Source: an uncultured Bdellovibrio sp. (GTDB lineage: Bacteria > Bdellovibrionota > Bacteriovoracia > Bacteriovoracales > Bacteriovoracaceae). Taken from it: a stretch of DNA of 56,721 nucleotides. Below are positions 1 to 52,914 of the stretch, in pieces (positions within the stretch are counted from its first letter, which is position 1; the number at the start of each line of letters is the position of its first letter). The translations under genes were made by a program, and so were the position numbers. The DNA lies in NCBI GenBank assembly GCA_964359085.1, contig CAYHRT010000001.1, positions 1-56,721 on the forward strand, in the 5' to 3' direction. The notes beneath the pieces were generated by a model. It made no database searches. It was not told where the DNA came from and saw only the letters and a program-made list of their open reading frames with translations.

Positions 1-507
1 AACACTTGCCCCAGATTTAAGTCGGGTAGTGAGTTCAATCACCAGTTCGGTCAAGGCGCAATCAATGGCAATGGGAGAGGTCCCAGGAGTTGTCGCGGCC
101 TGAAAAAGAGAATCGAGTGCATTTCGTTGGTTCGGATTGGGACGAACGAGTACGTCATCAAAGACAAGTTCATCAGTATTAATAGATACGTCGGCCAGAA
201 GGCCGTTGATGAAACTTGGATGAATAATGACCGATCTGAGGTCGCGGAGATCGGGATTAAATGAACACTCTTCGATATGCCTCTCACGTGCATTGAACAC
301 CATCAGCATATCATTGGCGACTGACCATTGTTGACCGCGGAAGCGCCGTTGGTGTCTAGTACTGCCGGTGGTAAAACAAAGTTCAATGCCCGAATGTTCA
401 GCTTCCGTGTGCTCGAAGAATCCAGCGGTATTGACCTGAAGAGTGGTGCATAGGCCGAAATGATCGCGCCGATTTGTGGCACAAAATGGTGTCTTTTCCT
501 CGTTCAC
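1..507 (-). CDS. AraC-family regulator, N-terminal (cupin-like ligand-binding) part; the 3' end runs off the left window edge
   Basis: The minus-strand frame is open from 519 to position 1 (no tta/cta/tca triplets in plus frame 1). GTG start at 507. Translation VNEEKTPFCATNRRDHFGLCTT..FFEHTEAEHSGIELCF..MLMVFNARERHIEEC..LTELVIELTTRL resembles AraC N-domains. It is absent from the ORF track because it is open-ended. No clear RBS. Confidence 0.5.
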   Translation of the reverse strand, partial: MNEEKTPFCATNRRDHFGLCTTLQVNTAGFFEHTEAEHSGIELCFTTGSTRHQRRFRGQQWSVANDMLMVFNARERHIEECSFNPDLRDLRSVIIHPSFINGLLADVSINTDELVFDDVLVRPNPNQRNALDSLFQAATTPGTSPIAIDCALTELVIELTTRLKSGASV

Positions 508-580
508 GGGATTTATTTAGCACTTTGTTAACTTTTTGTCACACTGCCAAATGAATTGTGGCAAGATCGCAATATACTTA

Positions 581-769
581 GGGCCCGTCCAAGAATAACA
601 TGGACAAAATCGCGCCCAGATTTAGGTCAGATTTGAGCGCAACGATTGAGAAAAAACCGAGGCATAGCACAGCTATGTCGAGGTTTTTTCGATTGAGGCG
701 CGTTCAAAGATGGCCTGAAGATGGGATGCGAGATGTCCATGTTATTCTTGGACGGGCCCTTACACTTTC
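581..769 (+). repeat. Family-A long-hairpin intergenic element, copy 1 (189 nt)
   Basis: 581-606 is the exact reverse complement of 744-769 (26 bp). The interior folds on itself around an apical hairpin at about 657-683. It is homologous to 12318-12495. Confidence 0.9.
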
Positions 770-829
770 GCACAAAATATCAAAACGGCGATTTGCTTTC
801 ACTGTAGTGTCTTTAGACAAGAGGAGTGA

Positions 830-1717
830 ATGGATCATTTATCCCGCATCCAAAGAGCGATTGATTATATCGAGAATCATCTCAAAGATGATCTCACGAC
901 GGAGGCCATCGCCAAGGAGGCCTACTTTTCAATGTGGCACTTTCAAAAGGTCTTTAGCTCTATGGTGGGAGATACATTGAAGGAGTATGTTCGAAAGCGC
1001 AGGTTAACGTCGGCCCTGATCGAATTGGGGAGTACTAACAGGCGGATCATTGAGATTGCTGTAGATTACCAATTTGACTCTCAGGAATCGTTCACAAGAG
1101 CGTTCAAGGCCGTTTTCGGATTGCCTCCTGGAGAATGCAGAAGACAAGGGATTAAATCCGTTCACACTCTCAATAAAGCAAGAATCACGATGGAGTACCT
1201 TGACCATCTTTATGGAGGGATGACGATGCAACCGAAATTTATGACAACCCAAGAAAAAAAGGTCGTTGGTTTGGGCACCAACTTTATTTCAATTCTTTCG
1301 CCGGAAAAAAACAATCATGTTTTGATTCCGCAGCTTTGGGACCAATACATCCCTCGTGCGCGAGAAATCGGCAAGCGCGTTGGTACATGGGATCTTGGTC
1401 TATGTGAAGCCATTGCCGACAAAGCAAAGAAAAAACATCCTGACGAATGTTTCTATATGGCCTGTGCGGAAGTGACAGATTTTAGCCAAGTTCCAAGCGG
1501 TATGCTTAAGAAAGTTATACCTGCGGGACGCTATGCCGTATTCACTCACAAAGGGAAACTCGATAAGCTGGAACATACCATGAATTATATTTTCGGGTCG
1601 TGGCTTCCAAAATCAGGTGAAGAACTCAGAGATGCTCCAGATTTGGAAATCTATGATCAGCGCTTTGTCGTCGACTCGGAAAGCTCAGAACTAGATATTT
1701 ATATTCCCGTGAAGTAA
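830..1717 (+). CDS. AraC-family transcriptional regulator with GyrI-like effector-binding C-domain
   Basis: 295-aa ORF. N-terminal AraC HTH signature (AIAKEAYFSMWHFQKVF..DYQFDSQESFTRAFKAVFGLPPGECR), then a C-domain of about 150 aa of the Rob/GyrI-like type. Confidence 0.85.
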   Translation: MDHLSRIQRAIDYIENHLKDDLTTEAIAKEAYFSMWHFQKVFSSMVGDTLKEYVRKRRLTSALIELGSTNRRIIEIAVDYQFDSQESFTRAFKAVFGLPPGECRRQGIKSVHTLNKARITMEYLDHLYGGMTMQPKFMTTQEKKVVGLGTNFISILSPEKNNHVLIPQLWDQYIPRAREIGKRVGTWDLGLCEAIADKAKKKHPDECFYMACAEVTDFSQVPSGMLKKVIPAGRYAVFTHKGKLDKLEHTMNYIFGSWLPKSGEELRDAPDLEIYDQRFVVDSESSELDIYIPVK

Positions 1718-3340: not shown

Positions 3341-4567
3341 TAGGCCGGTAAAAAGAACAGCTACTTTTTCATCCTTTGAAATTTCACCATTTTCCAAGAG
3401 ATTTAGAAGGCCGGCATATCCAGCGCTTCCGGTATGATCCACAGGTATGTGATATTTTTCTTTTGCAATCTTATTGGCTTCGTTTAATTCATCTTCGGAA
3501 ACAGTAATCGCATCACCATGGGTAGAAAAAATGCCCTCAACTATTTTGTACCAATCATAAGTAATATCATCCAAAATACCATGGGCGACACTTTTAGGTT
3601 CTGTTTCCCACGGCCACATATATTTAGTCATGTTCTGATTCAAAGTTTTGAGATCTAGCTTATTTCTAATCTTTTCTACCGCGCGAACGAGCGGATAGGC
3701 ACCCTGCGTTTGAACGGCATAAATTCGGGGCATCTTTGAAATTAATTTGGCCTTATAAAATTCCTGAAAGGCCTGAACGCTAGAACTTGCCAGTGCTCCA
3801 CCACCGACCTGAATGACAAGAGCATCCAGTTCTAAATTATTTTGCATCAACTCTGTCATAAGCTCAAAACATAGAGTTTCCCCACCTTCAATATTGCTCC
3901 AGTTATCAATTCCGGAACAGGAAAATGCCAGCGCACCATTTTCGAGTGCTTCTTGGAATCTATTGTAGCAAGGATCTCCAACTTCTCCAGCTATCCGCGG
4001 ACACGTATTGATCTGGGCACCATTATCGAGCAGTATTTCATAAACGGTTTCACTTAAGTCAGGAGGAACAAAGACGCTAAGTGGTTTTTTGGCAGCTTTG
4101 GCGACAAAAGAAGCGCCGATCGCGGCATTGCCACAACTGTAAATAGCAAGGTTAGATTTTTTCCCCCCAATAATTTCCAAGTAAATTGCGGTTCCCATGA
4201 GGTGCCTGGCTTTATGGGAGCCACCGATATTACAGGTTTCATTTTTAATAAATAAATTTTGGTCGCGAATTAGAGGAGTTTTACTAAAACCGGGATCGAT
4301 TTTTCTTACCAGCTCGTTGTAATTTAAATTCAACTTCTTTGCCAGAGCGTGGGAGTAAAAAAAGTCTTTAAACTTGATAAAGGGGTTCAATTCGCGGTTC
4401 GAGATTAACTCACTCTTTGAAATGACCACATCAATTTTTTTTTCAAGGATATGATTGATATCCTTGTTGTCTCCCCTGTTCTCACAAGAGAGCACCAGCT
4501 CTTTTTGAAGCTCATAAACCCTGCCACAACCTCGACAAAGAAGACTAGCAAGCATTATTAAACTCAT
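3323..4567 (-). CDS. threonine-synthase-like fold-type-II PLP enzyme with N-terminal zinc ribbon
   Basis: 414 aa. CRGCGRVY..C ribbon, PLP-lysine context GGSHKARH, YSCGNAAIGASFVAKAA, the phosphate-binding loop VQVGGGALASS, and C-terminal DHTGSAGYAGLL..VLFTG. Confidence 0.8.
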   Translation of the reverse strand: MSLIMLASLLCRGCGRVYELQKELVLSCENRGDNKDINHILEKKIDVVISKSELISNRELNPFIKFKDFFYSHALAKKLNLNYNELVRKIDPGFSKTPLIRDQNLFIKNETCNIGGSHKARHLMGTAIYLEIIGGKKSNLAIYSCGNAAIGASFVAKAAKKPLSVFVPPDLSETVYEILLDNGAQINTCPRIAGEVGDPCYNRFQEALENGALAFSCSGIDNWSNIEGGETLCFELMTELMQNNLELDALVIQVGGGALASSSVQAFQEFYKAKLISKMPRIYAVQTQGAYPLVRAVEKIRNKLDLKTLNQNMTKYMWPWETEPKSVAHGILDDITYDWYKIVEGIFSTHGDAITVSEDELNEANKIAKEKYHIPVDHTGSAGYAGLLNLLENGEISKDEKVAVLFTGLLRDLG

Positions 4568-6032
4568 TAATCAGTTTATCCCATTTCGGGATATATGATC
4601 GGAGTGAATTCCAAAATTCAGGGTCTTTCCTTACGTTGAAATCCTCGATTGAAACACCTTGCTGTTCAACCCAAGTATAATATCCAAGATTAAAAATTCT
4701 CTCTTTTCCAAAGAAGGTTAGCTCTTCCATATGATCGGTGGAAATGGCCATCATGTATTGGCCGAATGACTCTGCGGCCTTGCTTGCCGAATAATTATTT
4801 TTATAATATTTTCCAAGCGCCTTTTTTATCTCAGAAGAATACATCGTCGCAGGATCAGTGGCCACGGTGAGAAGAGCATCATCTTTTCCAAGCTTATAAT
4901 ATTTCGCAAGTTTGATGGCCGCGATGATATTTGCGATAGAAGAAATACCAAGATAGGAAAGTGAATCGACCGTCTCTTTTGAGAGTCCACGTTCCTTTAT
5001 CAAATAATTTTTTCCGATTTCATGGTTAAAGAGTGTCACCATGTTGTCAGTATTAGCATCAGAAACTGCAATAATAAAGTCAGTGTTCATTACATTGTGT
5101 ATAAAAGGAACGTGCTTATCACCGATTCCTTGAATGTTATGAGCACCAAAACCATTATTGAGAAGTGTTGGACATTCAACCGCTTCAACTGCTGCAATTT
5201 TTAATCCATTGTGTTTCTCTTTTAAATAATCACCGGCAGAGATTGTCCCGGCAGAACCGGTGGCAGAGATGAAAGCACGGGCCTTCAAACTAGGGTTAGC
5301 TTTTCTCACATGTTCAAAAACGTCATTCATGGCCTTGCCGGTGCAAGTATAGTGGCCCAAAGCATTGCTGAATTCGCAGAATTGATTAAAAATAATATTT
5401 TCAGGATCTTTTTCAAGTTGGTTGCAAGCATCATAAATTTCTTTTACGTTACTTTCACAACCATAAGTTTTGATGATGTCTTTTTTTGGATCAATCGTCC
5501 ATTTGTTGAGCCAGTCAAATCGCTCTTGGCTCATCTCTTCTGGAAGGATGGCGACGCCATGACAATCCATTATCCTGGAAACGGCAACTCCACCCCTGCA
5601 ATAGTTTCCAGTTGAAGGCCAGATCGCTCTGTGTTTTACAGGATTAAACTGGCCCGTAACAATCCGTGGAGCGAGACATGAATATGCTGCCAAAACTTTA
5701 TGGGCACTAATCATGGGAAAATTCGCTCCGATCATGACCACGATAGGAGCATCAATACCTGTAATCTCTTTACCTAAAACGATATGATGAGGAACGCTGG
5801 TGAAATTCTTTGATTTATTGTCATTATACCAATGAATACGAAATAAATTGAGAGGATGGGGAGCGTTTATATCAATATCTTTAAGCCCCTCTCGAACGTT
5901 TGCAGGAATTGTCGTGGGATTGGTAAGTTCAGAAAAGGTGGGAAGTTTAATTTTTCTCTCTTTAAAACGTTTTAAAGTATCGGCATAGATGTTTTTATCG
6001 ACAATATGTGTTTCTAGTCCGAGCTTTGCCAT
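4545..6032 (-). CDS. fold-type-II PLP-dependent enzyme (Trp-synthase-beta/Cys-synthase superfamily) with long N-terminal extension
   Basis: The track ORF begins at TTG 6074. ATG 6032 (MAKLGLETH..) has aaggga 7 nt upstream. Motifs include FPMISAHKVLAAY (candidate PLP lysine) and SATGSAGTISAG. It overlaps the downstream PLP gene by 23 nt. Confidence 0.75.
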   Translation of the reverse strand: MAKLGLETHIVDKNIYADTLKRFKERKIKLPTFSELTNPTTIPANVREGLKDIDINAPHPLNLFRIHWYNDNKSKNFTSVPHHIVLGKEITGIDAPIVVMIGANFPMISAHKVLAAYSCLAPRIVTGQFNPVKHRAIWPSTGNYCRGGVAVSRIMDCHGVAILPEEMSQERFDWLNKWTIDPKKDIIKTYGCESNVKEIYDACNQLEKDPENIIFNQFCEFSNALGHYTCTGKAMNDVFEHVRKANPSLKARAFISATGSAGTISAGDYLKEKHNGLKIAAVEAVECPTLLNNGFGAHNIQGIGDKHVPFIHNVMNTDFIIAVSDANTDNMVTLFNHEIGKNYLIKERGLSKETVDSLSYLGISSIANIIAAIKLAKYYKLGKDDALLTVATDPATMYSSEIKKALGKYYKNNYSASKAAESFGQYMMAISTDHMEELTFFGKERIFNLGYYTWVEQQGVSIEDFNVRKDPEFWNSLRSYIPKWDKLINEFNNAC

Positions 6033-8916: not shown

Positions 8917-10017
8917 ATGTCCGCTGGGAGTATTAGTATTGAAGTGCCAAATTTAGGTGAATCAATCGATGAAGCAGTTATTGTCCAGTGGTTAACCAAG
9001 GAAGGTGATCCAGTTAAAAAAGGTGATGTCATTCTTGAATTGGAATCTGATAAGGCCAATGTTGAAATTCATTCCCCCGAATCTGGAATATTACACGTCA
9101 AAGCGGAAGTTGGGCGTACTGTGAAAATAGGACAGCAAGTTGGAGAAATTGGGCCCGTTTCTGAATCTTCAAATGTAAAGCCAAAGTTAGATACTAATAT
9201 TATTTCAGATAATAAATTGGCCACTCCAGAACCTAAAGCAGAAATACAAGCGAAAAAACAGTTTCTCAATGATTCCCAATGGAGCGAAGAAATTAGTCCC
9301 TTTGTTAAAACCATGGCAAAAAGATTGCTAAAAGCGCAGCAGGAGTCTGTTGCCGCGACAACTTATAATGATGTGGACATGTCAAAGATAATTTCTCTGC
9401 GAGAAAAGCTCAAGACCGAATTTCATGAGAAATATGGCGTAAAATTAGGGTTTATGCCTTTTTTCTGCGACGCTGTTGTTATGACTCTAAAAGAATTTCC
9501 AATTCTAAATGCACAAATGAATGAGCATGAAATTATCTTTAATAAAAAGGTTCATTTAGGCATTGCCATTAGTCGGGAAAAAGGTCTGGTGGTTCCCGTC
9601 ATCAATAATTCAGATGAAATGAGTTATTCCGAGTTCGAAAAAGTAATTGCACAACAAGCTGACAAGGCATCCAAAGGGAATTTGGATTTAGCAGAACTAT
9701 CTGGAGGCACATTTACAATTACTAACGGGGGAATGTTCGGGTCGTTGTTTTCAACTCCTCTCTTAAATCCTCCTCAGGTCGGCATTTTAGGCATGCATCG
9801 TATTGATTATCGTCCTGTGGCGATAAAAAATGAGAAGGAGGTATATCAACTACAAATCAGGCCAATGATGTATTTGGCGCTAACCTATGATCATCGTTTG
9901 GTTGAAGGTAAATTAGCAGTCCAATTCTTGTCACGTCTTAAAGAAAACTTAGAAAATATAGACGAAAAAAAGATTTTTCGGGAAGAAACAAAGGATCAAG
10001 CACAGGAAAAAAGTTAG
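8917..10017 (+). CDS. sucB: dihydrolipoyllysine-residue succinyltransferase (E2o), apparently lacking a peripheral-subunit-binding domain
   Basis: 366 aa, starting 4 nt after the sucA stop. Lipoyl site [10 protein letters not shown]. The catalytic domain carries [10 protein letters not shown] and YDHRLVEG (canonical motif DHRxxDG). The linker at about residues 80-125 has no GxGxxGRI-type PSBD motif. Confidence 0.9.
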
Positions 10018-10034
10018 CGCGAAAGTTCCGGGTG

Positions 10035-10072
10035 CCTGACGCTCTACCCCTGGTACCTCGCACCACAATTGC
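10035..10072 (+). repeat. imperfect direct repeat, copy 1 (cctgacgctctacccc..caccacaatt)
   Basis: Matches 11012-11050 at most positions. Cores of 16 nt and 10 nt are identical. TATAAT lies about 35 nt downstream of both copies. Confidence 0.75.
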
Positions 10073-10959: not shown

Positions 10960-11011
10960 TTGATGGCCATTAATTTGGATAACACAATAATTGGCACGTA
11001 AGTGCAAGATA

Positions 11012-11050
11012 CCTGACGCTCTACCCCGAGTAGCAGTCACCACAATTAGC
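11012..11050 (+). repeat. imperfect direct repeat, copy 2
   Basis: See 10035-10072. Together the two copies bracket the two small secreted-protein genes. Confidence 0.75.
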
Positions 11051-11625: not shown

Positions 11626-11643
11626 GGTGAAGGAATTTTGGCA

Positions 11644-12318
11644 ATGAAAGCTAAAAATGTTACAGCGTCCTGTCATACTTGCCCAGAATGTGAAGGCCGC
11701 AATGTCAAAAGTGGCCCAATCGAACTTAAATTTGATCGCCATATCTTCAAGGCCAGAACCGAAGTCTGTAGAGATTGTGGCAACTACTTGACCTCGCCTC
11801 AATTTGAAAAAAAATTGGAGGAATGGACGAAAAATCTTGGAGCCAACTTCCACCAATATCAGCCAGCCGTTTCAAAAGAAATTTATGAAGACCTTGAAAA
11901 ACTATCTCATCAGCACGGAGTCAAGCCCGCAGTTATGGCCAAAATTATCACCACTGTCTACCTGGAACGTTCAAGAACGACTGAGGGATATGCGGCCTTG
12001 AAGAAATTTATTTTTGATTCAAACACTTTTGCCAAACTAGATAGCGGTAAAAAAGAACGAATATCGATTCCTGTTAAATACGAAATCTACAAGGAGATTC
12101 AGAACTTTGCCCAGATTTGGAATCTCAAAAGCGACACTGAGGTCTTAGCTGAGGCAATCAATTTTTGTGTTGTTCTCCTTTGCCATAGCACTGCTCTCGG
12201 CGAGGAATTCAAACTTGAAATTCGCAAAATTAAAGAATTAGCTACCGTTCGAAATAGTGCCCCTCATATCAAGAAAGTCATTGAATCTGACGTACGCTAT
12301 ATTGCAAAAGCCGCTTAG
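11644..12318 (+). CDS. YgiT/MqsA-type zinc-ribbon protein with unrelated C-terminal domain (possible antitoxin)
   Basis: ATG 11644, with gaagga upstream. N-terminus CHTCPECEG..(26 aa)..CRDCGNYL matches the CxxC..CxxC YgiT-type finger. I cannot recognise an HTH in the C-terminal part of about 160 aa. Confidence 0.6.
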   Translation: MKAKNVTASCHTCPECEGRNVKSGPIELKFDRHIFKARTEVCRDCGNYLTSPQFEKKLEEWTKNLGANFHQYQPAVSKEIYEDLEKLSHQHGVKPAVMAKIITTVYLERSRTTEGYAALKKFIFDSNTFAKLDSGKKERISIPVKYEIYKEIQNFAQIWNLKSDTEVLAEAINFCVVLLCHSTALGEEFKLEIRKIKELATVRNSAPHIKKVIESDVRYIAKAA

Positions 12319-12495
12319 GAGTCGCGCATAAATAAATGTTACAGGTCGCGCCCAGATTTTAGTTAGATTTGAACGCGAAGATTGAGAAAAATGCGAGGAA
12401 TGGCAGGGCCATTTCGCGTATTTTTCGATTGAGAAGCGTTCAAAGATGACTGAAAGATGGGATGCGAGATGTAACATTTATTTATGCGCGACTCC
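12318..12495 (+). repeat. Family-A long-hairpin intergenic element, copy 2 (178 nt)
   Basis: 12318-12343 (ggagtcgcgcataaataaatgttaca) is the exact reverse complement of 12470-12495. The interior is homologous to 607-743. The element exactly fills the gap between two convergent stop codons. Confidence 0.9.
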
Positions 12496-15400
12496 TTAGC
12501 GCGCAGTCAGACTCAAAATATTTTCATACACCACATCATCGCCATAAAAAACTTGCAGGTTGAGCTTAAACGGCTTCTTTTTGGCCTTTGCCTTAAATTG
12601 GTAAGCAAGTTTCAATGCTACTTTTTCACCTCGGCCGATGGAATCGGTATTCAATTCTGCGCGCACGATCTTGAGCAGGCTGCCTGTCTCTTCATCATGC
12701 GAGGTCAGTTTCACGCGATAACCAGATGGCACGTTATCGCGCAAACCTGTTAACACCGTTTCAACTTCATGAATGCGATACTTCCACTTAAATGGCCAAA
12801 ATCCCCAATCGCGCCACTTCGGCTTGGCCTCAAAATTGACCGCAGCACTGATACCTGGGTTTACCTTCACTACGCCTTCGTATGCAATGGGAAGGCGCAG
12901 CTCTCGGGTCACACCATCACCGGGAACAAGCACATGACCTTTTAACCAGAATTTTTCGCCTGGAACAGCATCCTCGCCGATCTGGGCGGCCAAGACATCG
13001 TGCAGTTCAATTACGTGCTGGGAAGGAAGTTCGCGCAATTCGCTGGACTGGGCCTTCATTTCTATATTGCGACTTTTTTCTGAAATTGCTAGGCGACCTA
13101 GAGTAGGAGACAGTGCCACACCACCAGCATTGTATAAATTTATCCCAAGTGCCAGCTGTGCTCCTTGAATTGGGCCTCTGGAATCGTTGGAGATGATCAA
13201 GGCACTGTTGGCGGCCATTAGACGAACAAGGGCGTGGGTGTTAGCAAAATTTTGCGCTTGCTCGCGGCCCTTGGCAAAAGCGCGCGCCTCAGCACCGGGA
13301 AGTGTTTCTGCGAAGCCAATACGCTGCCCATCCTCCTCACCTTTAGCGCGAATTTCGCGCACACCACGTGCACGCGCTTCTGCGTATACCACCACTCGCG
13401 ATTCTTCTTTGGAGACAACAAAGAGATTGTTTTTGTTTTTGATAAAGTTTTTATCAAAATTATGGCGCCATTGCCCGGGATAGTTCAGGGTGAAATTCTG
13501 CCAATGGGCCTCGGTCGCCCCTTGGTTAAAACCGCCATTGTAGGATTCTTCGCAGGCACGCAGATAATCAGCAACTTTTTTATAGACACTGCTGCAATCA
13601 CGCCCACTAACATCGATCGGAATGACACCTGCGCCTTGGTAGGCAACTCTTGTGTCAGAAAAATTCTGACGTGGATCGCGATAGCGCTCAATGTCCTGTT
13701 CTATTTTGAGAATAACCTGATTGACTGCCGAAATAATTTCTTTGGCGGCGGCGATTTCTTCCGGTGACAACTCTGTTTCATCAGTGCTCTCAAGTAATTC
13801 TTTTGTAATAATATTTTTCTCATCATTCTTATTCATTGCTAATGCTTTCAACGTACCATTGCTTAGAACTACACGTGATCTCGGAACTGCCGCCAAAATT
13901 TCTTGCATCCGTTCGGCATAACCCATCGGAACATGGGTGCGCTCCGCCTGTTCTTCGGCCTGGCGACGTCCGAGTTCAAAACCTACCGCATAAGCTTCAT
14001 CGTAATCTACCTTGGAATTTAATCCATCGGCATAACCGGTTTCATCACCGACTAATTTTCCACGCAAGAGTCCGCGCCAACGTCCATCCAACTCGGCCGC
14101 AATCAAACCATACTTGAGACCATTGAGTTCGCCTAAGCGGCGGGCCTCGGCTTCACCCAGCGGTTTGCCTTTGCCACTGCCGACCGGCCGACCTTGCTTG
14201 AATCCAAGATCGCGAGCAGCGGCGAGATATTGTTGGTAACGATTATAGCGCTCTTGATAGGCAGCAAATTTCTCCGCAGTGATGCGCTCTACCGTTTTCG
14301 CCACTTGATCAGCGTCATTAAAAATCTTTTGCAACTGCTGCAGTTCCCCTTGGAATTGCGTCAATTCGCGCTGACGGACGGCGATTAAATTTTGAAATTG
14401 AGAAATATTCGAGCGCGACTCCCGAATCAGCGTTTCAAATTCTACGATGGCCGACTCTCTTGCGGCACGCTCCTGAATCAACTCGGCCCGTAGTGTTTCC
14501 ACTTCACGGCGAACACGTTCATTTTGCTCCAGCAGCGCCAACAGGCGCGAACGTTCATTTTCCAAGGTGCGAACAGCTTGCTGAAGTTGCGCCACTTTCT
14601 GTTCGGCGCGAACGACTTGCTCACGCGCACTTTGAACTGCTGAGGCATATTGGGAGACCTGGCGCTGTAACTCACGCACCTGATTTTGCAGTTGAACTAA
14701 AAACTCGCGCAATTGACCGAGACGTACTTCCATCTGGCGGGTGCGCGCTTCCGATTGAGCGAGTGTGCGCGCCATTTCTCGTACCCGTTCCTCCGTTTGA
14801 AGAACAGCTTGGGTGGCATGCTGTGATTCCACTTCTCGCTGTTGTAAGCGTCTGCCGCTCTCCTGCACTTCCTGCGCCACGCTGTTTCTTCGTACTTCTC
14901 CTTCTCGTATATTTTGTTCTGCGCGAGTCACTTCTGCTTGCCCTCGCGCCACACTCTGCTGGGCCCGCGCGATTGCACTATTGGCCTCTGTGAGACTGCG
15001 CTCAACTTGTTGCAACTCTGCAAGCAAGGTCGGACGACGCGTCTCAAGCTCGCGCTTTTGCCCTTCAAGTTTAGCACGCTCTTGCGCCAAAGAATTCAAT
15101 TCTTGCTGAACTCCACCAAGCTGCTTATTGGCCTCTCCGTGCGCCTGCCTTTTAAGCGCCAGTGCTTCTCTTAAGCCACGTACTTCGGCCTGCAAGCGTT
15201 CATTGTCTGCCCGCAAGGCGCGAATTTTGGCCTGGACCTCGGGAGTTTGTTCTCCCTGAGATAACTCTTTAAGCAGTTCGGCGTTTCTTTTCATGGTGGC
15301 CATCAAAGGTTCCATGACATTTTGACCTAAACGAATTTCTTCCGCCAAACTTGCAATCTGTGCTTGCAGTTCTCTTTCACGCCCTTTTAACTGGCGTTCA

Positions 15401-16347
15401 TGCTCTGGCAGGCGCGCCAGGGTTTCGGCGATTTGTCGTATTTGCCCATCGAGACCCGACAGTTGTGTGTTAATATTTTGCTTTTGCCGCTCGAGTTCAC
15501 GCACCTGATTCTGGCTGGCCAGTAATTCTTGCTTCGATGTTTCCCACTGAGCGCGAGCGCGCTCTAGCGCCTCTCTTGCTGGCGCAATTTCTTGCTCAAT
15601 TTGCCTCAGGCGCGCCTCATTTTGGGCGTGCAACTGGCGCTGTTGCTGAAGCATGGCCTTAAGTTGTCGATCTTGCTCGCGCAACCCGATCAAAGTATTT
15701 TCCAGGGCACTTCGCTCACGTGCCAGTTGCTCAAGCTCGCGCAGGAGCTGCTGGCGCTCGGCAATTAGATTGGCCTCATCGCTGCGAGTTTGGCGCAACT
15801 GCCCTTCCTTTGCATGCAGCTCGCCTTGGGCCAGGGCCTCTGCCCGCTCCACCTGGCGCAGCTCTTCGCGCTCCCGTTCTAACCGCTCAATTTCCCGTTG
15901 TAGATTGAGGCCCTCTGCCTCAAGACGGGTACGGATGTCTCTTTCACTATTTTGCAAACGCCCCTGCTCCACTATTAAATTGCTTAAACGGCCCTCGGCG
16001 CGTGGGATTTCCTCTCTAAGTCGCTGAATCTGGCCGCGATGATTGGCAATTTCGTTCTCGGAGTGGGTGATGGTTTGTTGGTTTGCCTGAATCGCCTCAT
16101 GATGGGAGCGAAGTTCCCCTTGGTGATGACTGATCTGACCTTCTTTGGAGCGAACATTCGCCAGCGCCTCATTGGCATCTTCACGTTTGTCGTCCGAAAT
16201 CGCTTTGGCCGCCAAATAGCGCTGATAATAAGTATCTTTATCAATCTCATCGGGAAGGGCACCAAAGGCCTTGCCTAAGAATAGGATTGTGAGGCCCAGC
16301 ATGGCCAAAATAAAGAAATGAAAGCGCAAATTATTTATCGCCGACAT
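12496..16347 (-). CDS. very large (1283 aa) exported or membrane-anchored coiled-coil protein
   Basis: N-terminal hydrophobic anchor FHFFILAMLGLTILFLGKAFG. About 650 aa of Q/E/R/L/A-rich heptad-like sequence, then a globular C-terminal part of about 550 aa. GC-rich relative to its neighbours. Confidence 0.85.
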   Translation of the reverse strand: MSAINNLRFHFFILAMLGLTILFLGKAFGALPDEIDKDTYYQRYLAAKAISDDKREDANEALANVRSKEGQISHHQGELRSHHEAIQANQQTITHSENEIANHRGQIQRLREEIPRAEGRLSNLIVEQGRLQNSERDIRTRLEAEGLNLQREIERLEREREELRQVERAEALAQGELHAKEGQLRQTRSDEANLIAERQQLLRELEQLARERSALENTLIGLREQDRQLKAMLQQQRQLHAQNEARLRQIEQEIAPAREALERARAQWETSKQELLASQNQVRELERQKQNINTQLSGLDGQIRQIAETLARLPEHERQLKGRERELQAQIASLAEEIRLGQNVMEPLMATMKRNAELLKELSQGEQTPEVQAKIRALRADNERLQAEVRGLREALALKRQAHGEANKQLGGVQQELNSLAQERAKLEGQKRELETRRPTLLAELQQVERSLTEANSAIARAQQSVARGQAEVTRAEQNIREGEVRRNSVAQEVQESGRRLQQREVESQHATQAVLQTEERVREMARTLAQSEARTRQMEVRLGQLREFLVQLQNQVRELQRQVSQYASAVQSAREQVVRAEQKVAQLQQAVRTLENERSRLLALLEQNERVRREVETLRAELIQERAARESAIVEFETLIRESRSNISQFQNLIAVRQRELTQFQGELQQLQKIFNDADQVAKTVERITAEKFAAYQERYNRYQQYLAAARDLGFKQGRPVGSGKGKPLGEAEARRLGELNGLKYGLIAAELDGRWRGLLRGKLVGDETGYADGLNSKVDYDEAYAVGFELGRRQAEEQAERTHVPMGYAERMQEILAAVPRSRVVLSNGTLKALAMNKNDEKNIITKELLESTDETELSPEEIAAAKEIISAVNQVILKIEQDIERYRDPRQNFSDTRVAYQGAGVIPIDVSGRDCSSVYKKVADYLRACEESYNGGFNQGATEAHWQNFTLNYPGQWRHNFDKNFIKNKNNLFVVSKEESRVVVYAEARARGVREIRAKGEEDGQRIGFAETLPGAEARAFAKGREQAQNFANTHALVRLMAANSALIISNDSRGPIQGAQLALGINLYNAGGVALSPTLGRLAISEKSRNIEMKAQSSELRELPSQHVIELHDVLAAQIGEDAVPGEKFWLKGHVLVPGDGVTRELRLPIAYEGVVKVNPGISAAVNFEAKPKWRDWGFWPFKWKYRIHEVETVLTGLRDNVPSGYRVKLTSHDEETGSLLKIVRAELNTDSIGRGEKVALKLAYQFKAKAKKKPFKLNLQVFYGDDVVYENILSLTAR

Positions 16348-20675: not shown

Positions 20676-22277
20676 GTGGACCGGCATGAAGAATTTTACC
20701 AGTTGATTTTGGAGCACTGTCTTGATGCAGGAATAGGCATGGATGATAAGGGCATCATTACCGACTGGAACCTTCAAGCAGAAAAAATTTTTGGATGGAA
20801 AAAAGAGGAAGCGATAGGACGTGGCCTATCAGAAACCATTATTCCAACCCGCTTCCGTGAGGCACACGAGCAAGACCTGAAAAAAGGCCTGATCACTGGA
20901 GAAGGTGCTGTTTTCAACAAACACCTTGAAAAAAGTGCTTTGCGCAAGGACGGTTCAGAATTTCCGGTGGAATTAACCGTAATTCCCATTAGAGTTAAGA
21001 GGGGGGTTTCTTTTTATGCTTTTTTAAGGGATCTCACTGTACAAAAAAAGCTTGAACAAGAGTCTGTCAAAGGGCACGAGGAACTTGAAATACGGGTTAA
21101 TAAGCGCACCCAGGAAATCCAAAATGCCTATGGATTTGTGAACGCCGTAATTGAGAATATTCCTGACATGATTTTTGTCAAAGAGGCCAAAGAACTGCGT
21201 TTCGTGCGTTTTAATAAGGCAGGAGAAGAACTCCTCGGTTATACACGCAACGAACTGATCGGAAAAAATGATTATGATTTTTTTCCAAAAGCGGAGGCCG
21301 ATTTTTTCACTTCTAAGGATAGGGAAGTACTGTCCAACGGAGCGCTCTTGGATATTTTAGAAGAACCCATCCAAACGCGCCTAAAGGGTAGGCGCATTCT
21401 GCACACAAAGAAAATTCCCATCTATAATGAGCAGGGCAGGCCTGAGTACCTGCTGGGAATCTCTGAAGACATCACTGAAAAACAACAGGCAACGGAAAAT
21501 TACCTGAAACTAAAAGAAGAGGAACTGGCACTGGCCGAAACCAAAAGAGAGCTGCAAGAACGGGATGAATTTCTTTCTATCATCGCCCACGAATTAAGAA
21601 ATCCTTTAAGCGCACTCCTCATGATCACTCAGCTTTTGGAAAGACAATTTCAGGAAGGTAAATTCGCCGACGGCATAGAATTTAAATCTATGGCGAATAT
21701 CCTTCAAAAGGCAAAGGAGCAAATCGAACAATTTTCCGTCTTAGTGGAAGATCTTCTGGATGTCTCACGGATCAGTGCAGGAAGACTGTCCATTAAAAGG
21801 ACCAGTGTGAATCTGGCGGAGACCATACAAAGTTGTCTAAGGCATTATGAAGTCATGATCAGGAAGGCCAAGTGCCCCCTCCAACTTGACCTCCAGACAC
21901 AGATCATCGGCCAATGGGACCCCATTCGTCTTGAGCAGATTTTATGGAACCTGCTCAGTAATGCCTTGAAGTTTGGTGCCGGAAAACCAATTGAAATTTC
22001 GAGCAAACTAGAAGCGAACAAGGCAATCATAAAAGTCATAGATCATGGCATAGGCATCTCAAAAGAAGATCAAGAGAAAATTTTCACCCGTTTTACGCGG
22101 GCCGTTTCGATTAGAGATTATGCAGGCTTTGGACTTGGGCTGTATATCGCCAAACAACTCGCGAATGCGCAAGGCGGGTCAGTCCGTGTTCAAAGCGAGA
22201 TAGGTCAAGGTTCGACGTTTACGGTGGAACTCCCTCTTAGTTCACCAATAAAAAGCGCGGGGCAAGAGAGTGCCTAA
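20676..22277 (+). CDS. PAS-domain sensor histidine kinase
   Basis: Two PAS-like segments, an H-box SIIAHELRNPLSAL, an N-box NLLSNALKF, and G-boxes DHGIGI and GFGLGL. Confidence 0.9.
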   Translation: MDRHEEFYQLILEHCLDAGIGMDDKGIITDWNLQAEKIFGWKKEEAIGRGLSETIIPTRFREAHEQDLKKGLITGEGAVFNKHLEKSALRKDGSEFPVELTVIPIRVKRGVSFYAFLRDLTVQKKLEQESVKGHEELEIRVNKRTQEIQNAYGFVNAVIENIPDMIFVKEAKELRFVRFNKAGEELLGYTRNELIGKNDYDFFPKAEADFFTSKDREVLSNGALLDILEEPIQTRLKGRRILHTKKIPIYNEQGRPEYLLGISEDITEKQQATENYLKLKEEELALAETKRELQERDEFLSIIAHELRNPLSALLMITQLLERQFQEGKFADGIEFKSMANILQKAKEQIEQFSVLVEDLLDVSRISAGRLSIKRTSVNLAETIQSCLRHYEVMIRKAKCPLQLDLQTQIIGQWDPIRLEQILWNLLSNALKFGAGKPIEISSKLEANKAIIKVIDHGIGISKEDQEKIFTRFTRAVSIRDYAGFGLGLYIAKQLANAQGGSVRVQSEIGQGSTFTVELPLSSPIKSAGQESA

Positions 22278-22805: not shown

Positions 22806-22837
22806 GTCCTGTCCAAACTGCCTTTTTCAACACTCTG

Positions 22838-23500
22838 TTAGTTCACCAAAAAAAAGCGCGGATCAAGAGAATGCTGAACATCCTTGATCACCCCATCGTT
22901 TTCATGCAAATCTCTTTTTGTGAATCCAACCGTGATATGGGGAAAAAAATGTTCAGGATCAAATGATTTAGGGTCACCGCCCTTGTCGACAAAACGCTTA
23001 TATATCAAGCGTCGAAGCTGCAAGAGATCCTCAGATTGAACAATCAAGAAAAATGTTTCTTGCGTTCTCCCATCCAAAAAAATCTTGCCACTGCCAACTC
23101 CCAAAACATCAAAACGTGATTTTTGAATTTCCAACTCTCGGGCAATTTGATTAATCTCCCTCATGCTAAGTTTGTTTTTAAGCGCCTGCACATATTCAGG
23201 TGGAGTTATCACTGTAATGTGGGCCTCACCCCGATTGATCAGATTTGGGTAGAGGGCCTGACGAATTTTGGCCAAAATTTCAGCGATGGGTTCAAAACGC
23301 ACATTCATCACCAGATAGCTGTCAAAGGCCCCTGGCCCTTCGTAGGTATTAAAAGGCAGTTTTTCGTTCTGATAGATCTCCTGCAATAAAGTAATCGGAA
23401 TTTTTTGCTCTGCACTTTCAGCAAAAGCGGATGGCCCGACAACAATTGCTGGCAATAACCAAGCAAGTAAAAAAAGGATGGAACGAGTTCTTACTACCAT
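22838..23500 (-). CDS. secreted 2H-phosphoesterase-superfamily protein
   Basis: 220 aa. Signal peptide ..VVGPSAFAES. Two HxTx motifs (GEAHITVITPPE and FFPHITVGFT) at the spacing typical of LigT/CPDase-like enzymes. Confidence 0.65.
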   Translation of the reverse strand: MVVRTRSILFLLAWLLPAIVVGPSAFAESAEQKIPITLLQEIYQNEKLPFNTYEGPGAFDSYLVMNVRFEPIAEILAKIRQALYPNLINRGEAHITVITPPEYVQALKNKLSMREINQIARELEIQKSRFDVLGVGSGKIFLDGRTQETFFLIVQSEDLLQLRRLIYKRFVDKGGDPKSFDPEHFFPHITVGFTKRDLHENDGVIKDVQHSLDPRFFLVN

Positions 23501-30276: not shown

Positions 30277-30450
30277 AACCTGAGTTTGGGATTAGGGTCG
30301 TAGCGAGAAGTCGTCTGACAAAGGAGTTCAAGGACGCACAAGTGAAAAACCGGAGGCGTAGCAGAGCTACGTCGAGGATTTTGAACGCGGAGGACGCTGA
30401 AATCCTTTGTTAGGCGGCTTCGCAGTAGACCCTAATCCCAAACTCAGGTT
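30277..30450 (+). repeat. Family-B long-hairpin intergenic element, copy 1 (174 nt)
   Basis: A 23-bp perfect terminal inverted repeat, aacctgagtttgggattagggtc / gaccctaatcccaaactcaggtt. 170 of 174 nt are identical to 52741-52914. Confidence 0.92.
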
Positions 30451-30489
30451 CATAAGTTCTTTAACATCCATTTGCCTAAGGAGATTGCT

Positions 30490-31089
30490 ATGCAATTTAT
30501 TAAGTGTTTGCTCGTCGCTATGCCTTTTTTATTTACCAGCGCCTTCGCCAGTGTCGAAGGCCTGTTCCATGTTGAAAGCTCTTTTTCCTATCTCAAAGGG
30601 AGCAAGACCCTGACTGTACCTGCGGGAGATTATAAAGCAGATTTGAAGGTAAGCAATTCTTCCATGACTTTAAAATTCAGAGATCAGACCGATGAAAAGC
30701 ATAAAATAAAAATGGAAGTCCCACGCGATTCTGTGCCCTCACGCAACGGCAGCTTCCATTATGAAAGCACTCAAGTTGAGCAACCCTTTGATCTATCAGG
30801 TCAGGTGGCGACGCAAGAAGAGAGAACTCCAACCCAATCACGCTATGAGAGCTGCACTTACCAGCGCCCTGTGCAAGTTTGCACCATTGATCCCTACGGT
30901 CGTCGTATTTGTCGCGTAGAATATCAAACAGTACAGGGTAACCACCAAGTGCTGTTTCACTATCTGATTGCACTCCGATCAACACTGGTGAATCTCGAAG
31001 GTGCCACTGATCGCAATCTCTTGGGAAATTTCTCCGGTACCGAAAATATCGAACAAATTATCACCGAACATGTGGGAGCTTGCTATTAA
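30490..31089 (+). CDS. secreted hypothetical protein
   Basis: Start trimmed to ATG 30490 (aaggag 6 nt upstream). Signal peptide MQFIKCLLVAMPFLFTSAFA. Confidence 0.55.
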   Translation: MQFIKCLLVAMPFLFTSAFASVEGLFHVESSFSYLKGSKTLTVPAGDYKADLKVSNSSMTLKFRDQTDEKHKIKMEVPRDSVPSRNGSFHYESTQVEQPFDLSGQVATQEERTPTQSRYESCTYQRPVQVCTIDPYGRRICRVEYQTVQGNHQVLFHYLIALRSTLVNLEGATDRNLLGNFSGTENIEQIITEHVGACY

Positions 31090-31100
31090 GCATAATAAGT

Positions 31101-31188
31101 GAGGTACCATGACCCCTTTGGGACTCATCGCGCCACTTAGCGGCTGCGGTGAGTCCCAAAGGGGTCATGGTACCTCTCATTTTTTTTT
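31101..31188 (+). terminator. intrinsic terminator with an unusually long perfect stem
   Basis: gaggtaccatgacccctttgggactca (31101-31127) pairs perfectly with 31150-31176. A 22-nt loop, then T9 after 4 nt. Confidence 0.75.
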
Positions 31189-52740: not shown

Positions 52741-52914
52741 AACCTGAGTTTGGAATTAGGGTCGTAGCGAGAAGTCGTCTGACAAAGGAGTTCAAGGACG
52801 CACAAGTGAAAAACCGGAGGCGTAGCAGAGCTACGTCGAGGATTTTGAACGCGGAGGACGCTGAAATCCTTTGTCAGGCGGCTTCGCAGTAGACCCTAAT
52901 TTCAAACTCAGGTT
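52741..52914 (+). repeat. Family-B long-hairpin intergenic element, copy 2 (174 nt)
   Basis: Differs from 30277-30450 at only 4 positions (52754, 52875, 52901, 52902), all of them in paired positions. Confidence 0.92.

Follow-up and report, generated by a model that had tools for sequence, protein, structure and literature searches.

A probable MITE of a large hairpin family fills the gap between two convergent stop codons in an uncultured Bdellovibrio

The window analysed here is the whole of a 56,721-nucleotide stretch of contig CAYHRT010000001.1 (positions 1 to 56,721, assembly GCA_964359085.1) from an uncultured Bdellovibrio sp. It holds four small hairpin elements, all non-coding and co-oriented and lying 12-22 kb apart among housekeeping genes. 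One of these, Family-A copy 2 (A2), lies precisely between the stop codons of two converging genes. A Pfam scan of 30 open reading frames (ORFs) of the window returned ordinary chromosomal functions, including sucA/sucB-like dehydrogenase subunits, sensor kinases, a sigma-54 activator and helicases, and the DNA of the window is also present in groundwater metagenome runs. The source is thus a Bdellovibrionota population of groundwater, and a protein with 99% identity also carries the label Bdellovibrionota. The features of the A2 locus, followed by the other three copies, are:

11638-12318, + strand: gene for a 226-aa protein with no function assigned; its TAG stop is at 12316-12318
12315-12317: left copy of the target-site duplication, TTA, whose T-A together with the first G of the element makes the TAG stop of the + strand gene
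12318-12495, + strand: A2, a 178-bp non-coding hairpin element and probable MITE with "type i" GG...CC ends; the + strand is the better-folding one
12318-12343, + strand: left terminal inverted repeat and outer stem arm, 26 nt, perfect, GGAGTCGCGCATAAATAAATGTTACA
12354-12470, + strand: conserved inner rod, delimited from the sequence, the + strand fold, the column counts and the 11-nt spacing
12386-12425: most conserved core, common to all four copies of the window and resembling a bidirectional intrinsic terminator
12387-12391: A-run of the core, AAAAA
12397-12415: apical stem-loop of the core, extended by GCG/CGC
12421-12425: T-run of the core, TTTTT
12470-12495, + strand: right terminal inverted repeat and outer stem arm, 26 nt, perfect
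12496-12498: right copy of the target-site duplication, TTA, whose complement is the TAA stop of the - strand gene
12496-16347, - strand: GC-rich gene for a 1283-aa protein, converging on the element; its TAA stop is the complement of 12496-12498
578-762, + strand: Family-A copy 1 (A1), with TTA on either side of 581-759 and 27-bp perfect arms
30277-30450, + strand: Family-B copy 1 (B1), with the same apical core and different arms (23-bp perfect)
52741-52914, + strand: Family-B copy 2 (B2), 98% identical to B1

The 1283-aa protein has no Pfam family above threshold, and a homologue search of the database returned only the protein itself, leaving it an orphan. The first-pass annotation saw in the element the marker of a sharp compositional boundary. 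The step in GC content is real (0.36-0.41 over 6-12 kb against 0.48-0.54 over 13-16 kb), but as the value falls back to ~0.40-0.44 past 16 kb, the step is a property of the 1283-aa gene rather than of the element. The ORFs that overlap elements, at 600-980 and 12484-12753, are mechanical calls, and a short frame of 13 codons within the right arm (ATGGGATGCGAGATG...) was dropped on the ground that the arm sequence is not conserved.

The two 26-bp arms of A2 are exact reverse complements of each other, and the 177 nt that separate the TAG from the TAA consist entirely of element; both the arms and the exact filling of the gap had been claimed earlier, and both claims hold to the nucleotide. What had been described as an imperfect extension of the palindrome by one more step (cttagga../..tccttag) is, however, a direct repeat of (C)TTA(G) on both sides, gccgC-TTA-[GGAGTC...GACTCC]-TTA-Gcgcg, that is, a target-site duplication. 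Deletion of A2 and one TTA in silico leaves GCCGCTTAGCGCGC (...AAA GCC GCT TAG CGC GC...), in which both stops are retained with a 2-nt overlap. On this reconstructed empty site, AAAGCCGCTTAGCGCGCAGTCAG, the + strand gene ends in TAG and the - strand gene in CGC TAA on the other strand, the overlap being the central T-A. The C-terminus of the 226-aa protein, ...YIAKAA followed by the stop, is unchanged in orthologues without the element (73% and 63% identity), and at loci L239 and L240 the orthologous reading frames close with AAA GCx GCx TAA/TAG and no element follows. Since these element-free orthologues stop after the same ...YIAKAA, the position of the stop is ancestral. The comparison of orthologous loci that had been proposed as a check thus yielded element-free counterparts for the left gene; a site empty between both genes was not found, and in the relatives that lack the element the right neighbour is non-syntenic. 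The A2 site itself was assembled in several independent metagenome runs and carries the element in each run where the locus is present, with no contig in seven DNA metagenome runs skipping the element.

The duplication recurs throughout the family. Among 61 relatives with type-i ends, the 3-mers flanking the element are TAA/TAA in 21 cases, TTA/TTA in 18, TTA/TAA in 5 and TAA/TTA in 2. TWA-matched flanks hence occur in 39 of the 61, against 7 mixed pairs (binomial p ~1e-6, calculated on 40 matched against 7 mixed pairs, with one TGA/TGA case counted among the 40). The right TWA copy is followed by G in 30 of the 40 and the left copy preceded by C in 17 of the 40, from which the preferred target reads (C)TWAG. 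The type-i flanks are therefore a genuine 3-bp TWA target-site duplication. Because (C)TWAG reads TAG along one strand and TAA along the other, insertion regenerates an inward-pointing stop at each end, so that an insertion into a stop codon changes no protein and surviving insertions often sit on stop codons. Accordingly, ORFs of 80 codons or more terminate at a stop derived from the duplication: the left stop serves in this way in 9 of the 61 relatives and the right one in 12. As 2 elements (A2 and the one at locus L075) count under both, 19 (~30%) abut a stop on at least one side. The earlier suggestion that the element targets such sites is borne out by these counts, the element being a mobile multi-copy unit that duplicates TWA within (C)TWAG. 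Moreover, in contigs of the same groundwater populations (run X4, record 12, and run X7, record 21) A2-like arms are joined to different flanks, with TTA in one and TAA in the other, which is direct evidence that the A2 arm subfamily has moved.

Within the window, the core of A1 is 77% identical to that of A2, while their arms differ at ~40% of positions, each pair nevertheless remaining perfectly self-complementary. The arm of B2 is distinguished from that of B1 by one compensated change of G-C to A-T and one G.T wobble. The pattern GAAAAA-NNN-GAGG-stem-loop-TCGNG-NN-TTTT occurs in all four copies (4 matches against 0.00 expected). A strict 23-base core pattern gave no matches in GTDB genomes, and a looser core pattern, which fixes 22 columns and thereby makes them invariant by ascertainment, recovered the core motif at at least 230 loci in two public collections. 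Among the matches listed, multi-copy metagenome-assembled genomes (MAGs) belong to Bdellovibrio, Bacteriovoracaceae, Deltaproteobacteria, Gammaproteobacteria, Chromatiaceae, Nitrospinota, Peribacteria and Margulisiibacteriota, and the element is likewise multi-copy in a complete chromosome of Nitrospirales (Nitrospirota; OY820905.2). From the matched loci we extracted 176 distinct hairpin elements, which share one core and carry two types of ends:

Type i: GG(A/G)CCTG.. / ..CAGG(T/C)CC, ends GGACCTGAGAGAAAATAAC..., with TWA flanks; includes A1 and A2
Type ii: TATAC.. / ..GTATA, compatible with TA duplication

Conservation is higher in the inner core than in the terminal repeats, and this core is common to elements with GG-TWA ends, TATAC-TA ends and the ends of family B. 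A2 itself is matched over its full length by the family profile (nhmmer E = 2e-40). Rfam gave no matches at gathering thresholds, and permissive thresholds returned only chance similarities of a miRNA-hairpin-like kind (E >=0.13); a tRNA/tmRNA search found none, blastn against a plasmid collection gave no match to the element, and the published literature that we searched held no description of the family.

Taken together, A2 is very probably a non-autonomous transposable element (MITE) of a large family, and its fit between the stop codons would have arisen by insertion into CTTAG and not by local evolution. It is short and without an ORF of its own (178 bp, where MITEs are non-coding and below ~300 bp), it is bounded by 26-bp perfect arms whose consensus ends, GG(A/G)CCTG... 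/ ...CAGG(T/C)CC, are found in 61 relatives, and it is flanked, as is A1, by a duplication of fixed length, TTA/TTA. Its copies are dispersed, with four in the window, at least 230 loci overall and the same arms next to different flanks. The GG-initiated inverted repeats and the 3-bp TWA duplication (TWA/TNA) are those of the IS5 and PIF/Harbinger groups, and it is from these two features that we infer the kind of transposase involved. An autonomous partner with matching ends was found neither in the window (30 ORFs against Pfam) nor in ~1.5 Mb of family loci, where the longer terminal inverted repeat pairs and solo half-element matches are nested insertions. For instance, the element at locus L133 is interrupted by an IS630-like IS and that at L209 by another MITE; such nesting and IS insertion are typical of the landing pads of mobile DNA.

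The events at this locus can be proposed as follows. An IS5- or PIF/Harbinger-type transposase supplied from another locus would have cut (C)TWAG in a staggered manner, with duplication of TWA. The target here would have been CTTAG, at the point where the TAG of the + strand gene and the TAA of the - strand gene overlapped by two bases. After insertion, the T-A of the left TTA and the first G of the element would again form TAG, and the right TTA would give TAA as its complement, so that neither protein would be altered and the insertion would be tolerated. That the element "exactly fills" the gap would then follow from insertion into overlapped stops with duplication of TTA. Both convergent transcripts would thereafter enter the element, where the conserved centre would most likely stop or stall transcription from either side and the long stem would protect the 3' ends.

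Several known families share parts of this description. The Tourist-type PIF/Harbinger MITEs and the bacterial MITEs of the IS5 family (ISL2 / IS1031 / IS427) are likewise small and non-coding, with inverted repeats that start in GG and a TWA duplication in a CTWAG-like target; the reported target of PIF is CWCTTAGWG. In the present family, by contrast, the whole element is a hairpin, the core exceeds the ends in conservation and the fold is strand-asymmetric. Correia elements affect transcription termination and RNase III processing. These elements of Neisseria (CREE) and a MITE of Ca. Thiomargarita nelsonii are also hairpin MITEs of 100-200 bp that lie at gene ends or in intergenic regions and are co-transcribed with their neighbours. 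The Thiomargarita MITE, a possibly similar element, is a TATA-ended long hairpin (PMC4853749), and it is the type-ii, TATAC-ended relatives that resemble the TA/TATA ends of the Correia and Thiomargarita elements. A2 differs from both in its GG ends and in duplicating TWA rather than TA, and its own family spans several phyla. ERIC/IRU and REP/REPIN sequences are similarly dispersed imperfect palindromes of transcribed intergenic regions and possible 3' stabilisers; however, REP/REPIN sequences are not known to make a target duplication and depend on RAYT, and ERIC is known only from enterobacteria and vibrios, so that neither fits the A2 family. Finally, the predicted succession of A-run, stem-loop and U-run between convergent genes is shared with bidirectional intrinsic (Rho-independent) terminators, whereas in A2 this core is embedded in a 178-bp mobile rod and its U-run is paired with the A-run in the full fold. 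A core that is more conserved than the terminal repeats sets the family apart from ordinary MITEs.

The hairpin is predicted to be far more stable on both strands than chance would give. Shuffled sequences fold at -48.3 +/- 3.8 kcal/mol, against -117.4 kcal/mol for the + strand RNA of A2 (z = -18); the - strand RNA reaches -91.9 kcal/mol (z = -14.6), and 12318-12495 forms a single rod of ~90 bp. Across 42 type-i sequences, 43 of the 60 predicted pairs have changed on both sides, and 94.9% of the cells are paired, against 79.4% in shuffled alignments and 36-49% when the partner is slid; none of 500 shuffles reached the observed pairing value on any measure. Covariation of the arms alone does not prove a single-stranded structure, as one transposase recognising both repeats would also produce concerted change.

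Other properties distinguish the strands. The strand that carries the search pattern folds better than its complement in 61 of 61 type-i and 55 of 55 type-ii elements (116 of 116), the mean difference being 24 and 13.5 kcal/mol, respectively. G:U pairs number 539 overall against 31 A.C 1x1 mismatches, and in the fast-evolving arms there are 69 G.T against 16 A.C. Furthermore, the AGAT and CGATTGAG-type motifs on opposing arms are direct and not inverted repeats: in the rod of A2, AGAT occurs at 12354, 12365 and 12379 on one arm and at 12444, 12455 and 12467 on the other, and the CGATTGAG-type motifs at 12379-12386 (here AGATTGAG) and 12426-12433. In the + strand fold these motifs lie opposite one another and make symmetric 5'-AGAU/3'-UAGA and CGAUUGAG/GAGUUAGC blocks with tandem G.A and U.U; the tandem G.A loops recur every 11 nt, equivalent to a 9-bp helix plus GA/AG, and the complement strand would carry C.U mismatches at the same positions. 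For the columns fixed by the search pattern, RNAalifold gives a second register, an 11-bp CGAUUGAGAAA/UUUUCGAUUG helix with three G.U pairs. The preference for one strand, the excess of G:U and the direct AGAT/CGATTGAG repeats point to one strand being favoured, presumably as RNA or as single-stranded DNA. The strand-biased fold and the G.T excess are not explained by purely double-stranded cut-and-paste transposition.

The first-pass annotation had raised the alternative that the element acts as a bidirectional terminator or 3'-end stabiliser. In its strongest form, A2 would be retained here mainly in that role, with host selection explaining its position and its mobile origin being incidental; we consider this possible, though short of probable. 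A terminator scan flagged the core, with its A-run, stem-loop and T-run, as terminator-like on the + strand, and by our own reading the symmetry of the core may also offer a stem and U-run on the - strand. No block other than the core is conserved in all four copies of the window, each of which has a + strand gene upstream, and before the insertion the two genes would have overlapped without any terminator. It is hence plausible that the element would serve as a bidirectional terminator where the genes previously overlapped. A stem-loop followed by a U-run is, however, confined to the core (12397-12415 with GCG/CGC, then TTTTT at 12421-12425), the outer 26-bp arms being followed by TTAGCGCGCAG and no U-run. 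In some divergent copies CACAA/UUGUG-type pairs replace A5/U5, keeping the helix and losing the U-run. Nor does the family prefer an orientation: relative to neighbouring genes, type-i elements are ++ in 12 cases and -- in 15, and stops are abutted on the left in 9 and on the right in 12. Contigs from cDNA libraries of relatives span whole elements, which, if they derive from RNA, means read-through; these contigs are strandless and may include carried-over DNA. The single metatranscriptome that matches this genome contributes one contig, at 12683-12862, off the element. The loss of the U-run in divergent copies, the absence of orientation bias and the spanning cDNA contigs argue against termination being the selected property.

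A second alternative holds that the conserved rod is the functional unit: a protein would recognise it, either as structured RNA of one specific strand or as an intermediate of single-stranded DNA, and the terminal repeats would be interchangeable vehicles. This we regard as a doubtful reading. It would account for the better folding of the favoured strand in every one of the 116 copies, for the excess of G:U over A.C overall and in the arms, for direct repeats that yield tandem G.A loops with an 11-nt period in the + strand alone and for a core that is better conserved than its ends and is common to three sets of them. The target flanks are also asymmetric with respect to the orientation of the element (G at +1 in 30 of 40, C at -1 in 17 of 40), and the family is present in several metatranscriptome assemblies. 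Against it stand the lack of an internal promoter-like site (a scan of the element found no sigma-70 promoter), of an Rfam match and of an associated protein gene. The invariance of the most conserved columns is partly ascertainment, since the search pattern fixed them, and one transposase recognising both repeats would likewise lead them to change in concert. A more specific version, which we rate as unlikely, is that the inner rod of ~120 nt would function as a strand-specific module (structured RNA or folded single-stranded DNA bound by protein), defined by G:U on one strand only and by six symmetric tandem G.A motifs at intervals of one helical turn, and spread across phyla by at least two transposition systems. 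If this were true, those systems would be the TWA-duplicating GG ends and the TA-flanked TATAC ends, and the module would be either a portable bidirectional terminator or RNA-stability cassette, or a hairpin substrate for excision from single-stranded DNA by a transposase.

It is highly improbable that A2 was moved by a hairpin-recognising Y1/HUH transposase and is a single-strand transposon relic of REP/REPIN-RAYT or IS200/IS605 (PATE) type. The long hairpin, its strand asymmetry and the multi-copy intergenic distribution would suit such an origin, as would the orientation of the type-ii (TATAC) relatives, which are co-oriented with both neighbouring genes in 18 cases against 2. REP/REPIN-RAYT and IS200/IS605 elements are not known to duplicate their target, and they insert beside a fixed motif of four or five nucleotides. 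In the present family the 3-mers on the two sides instead vary together (TAA/TAA, TTA/TTA), as expected of a true duplication, which led us to reject membership of these groups; in addition, the ends are classical inverted repeats and there is no Y1 transposase among the scanned ORFs of the window. Integron attC sites are structure-conserved hairpins directly after stop codons, with the core-site consensus (R''/R') RYYYAAC ... GTTRRRY in a tandem cassette array, but A2 ends in GGAGTC...GACTCC and has no cassette array, and this reading, together with those of a locally evolved palindrome (homologous copies lie elsewhere, at least 230 loci having the core motif) and of an assembly artefact (several independent runs assembled the same site), is already refuted by copy number and target duplications.

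For annotation, the reading of A2 as a MITE means that a perfect fit between stops is the signature of a TWA-duplicating insertion into a stop-containing target, and not of a purpose-built regulatory hairpin. The same insertion logic applies to hundreds of copies in MAGs from groundwater, soil and sediment, in which the repeats of the family also break assemblies. Apart from the conservation of the core, its sharing across ends and phyla and the strand-specific rod, this is ordinary MITE biology. The family draws attention through a centre that is better conserved than its ends and common to different ends, and through a strand-specific fold with periodic G.A. If that centre is a mobile bidirectional terminator, it would provide ready-made insulation of convergent genes in compact genomes; if the fold reflects a single-strand intermediate, the family would bear on how MITEs are mobilised.

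The two family-B hairpin elements of the window share only the apical core of an A-run, stem-loop and U-run with the family-A elements, their 23-bp arms (AACCTGAGTTTGG...) being unrelated to the family-A arms. They accompany a solo arm remnant and several further repeats:

30277-30450, family-B copy B1, 98% identical to B2
52741-52914, family-B copy B2
1719-1738, solo remnant of the family-B right arm, CAATCCCGAACTCAGGTT, directly 3' of a TAA stop codon (1715-1717)
31094-31183, separate large hairpin whose 38-nt arms, 89% complementary, enclose a loop of 14 nt; TTTT comes after it
10009-10070 and 10986-11047, short direct repeat, 62 nt at 74% identity, apparently intergenic
22228-22273 and 22829-22874, short direct repeat, 46 nt at 85% identity, apparently intergenic

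No family-B copy was recovered in any of the loci fetched from other genomes on account of the core motif. The flanks are TTCATAA/TTCATAA at B1 and TTTTAA/TTTTCA at B2, two copies being too few to delimit a family-B target duplication. The remnant adjoins the stop of the gene for an AraC/GyrI-like regulator (830-1717), and is a further case of a repeat end located at a stop codon. The large hairpin, which directly follows an ORF (30472-31089), shows no sequence relationship to family A or B, and the direct repeats may represent additional small repeat families.

The gene converging on family-A copy A2 (12496-16347, minus strand) encodes a GC-rich 1283-aa protein in surroundings of lower GC, for which coiled-coil structure was proposed in the first-pass annotation. 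It matched no Pfam family above threshold and only itself among 5.8 billion protein sequences; by these comparisons the gene is an orphan.

Elements also occur in interrupted or nested form, type-i being the GG-ended class that includes both family-A copies:

L133 3424-4959, type-i element split by an IS630-like insertion sequence with a 367-aa transposase ORF (3624-4727)
L209 2718-3520, element within an element

In Nitrospinota contigs a further repeat, AGAGCTTGCGCGGACTTTTGTGATCCAACTGC, recurs beside elements.

Dozens of type-i element contigs are present in metatranscriptome (cDNA) assemblies of marine-sediment and aquifer origin. Comparison of runs X22, X23 and X25 with locus L034 (3850-4350), and of run X13 with window positions 400-1000, revealed summed word depths up to approximately 50-fold over the single-copy flank, and one cDNA contig covered a whole element. 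This suggests that type-i elements are co-transcribed, although the contigs are strandless and DNA carry-over is possible.

Among the TATAC-ended type-ii elements (loci L121-L221), 18 have their better-folding strand running in the direction of both adjacent genes, versus 2, these elements being non-independent because many stem from a few Gammaproteobacteria MAGs; type-i elements display no orientation bias toward neighbouring genes (12 versus 15). The type-i target flanks are themselves asymmetric relative to element orientation: among 40 loci with matching duplications, 30 have G immediately after the right TWA, but only 17 have C immediately before the left one. A symmetric cut-and-paste mechanism would be expected to yield equal G and C flank frequencies, from which the type-i loci differ.
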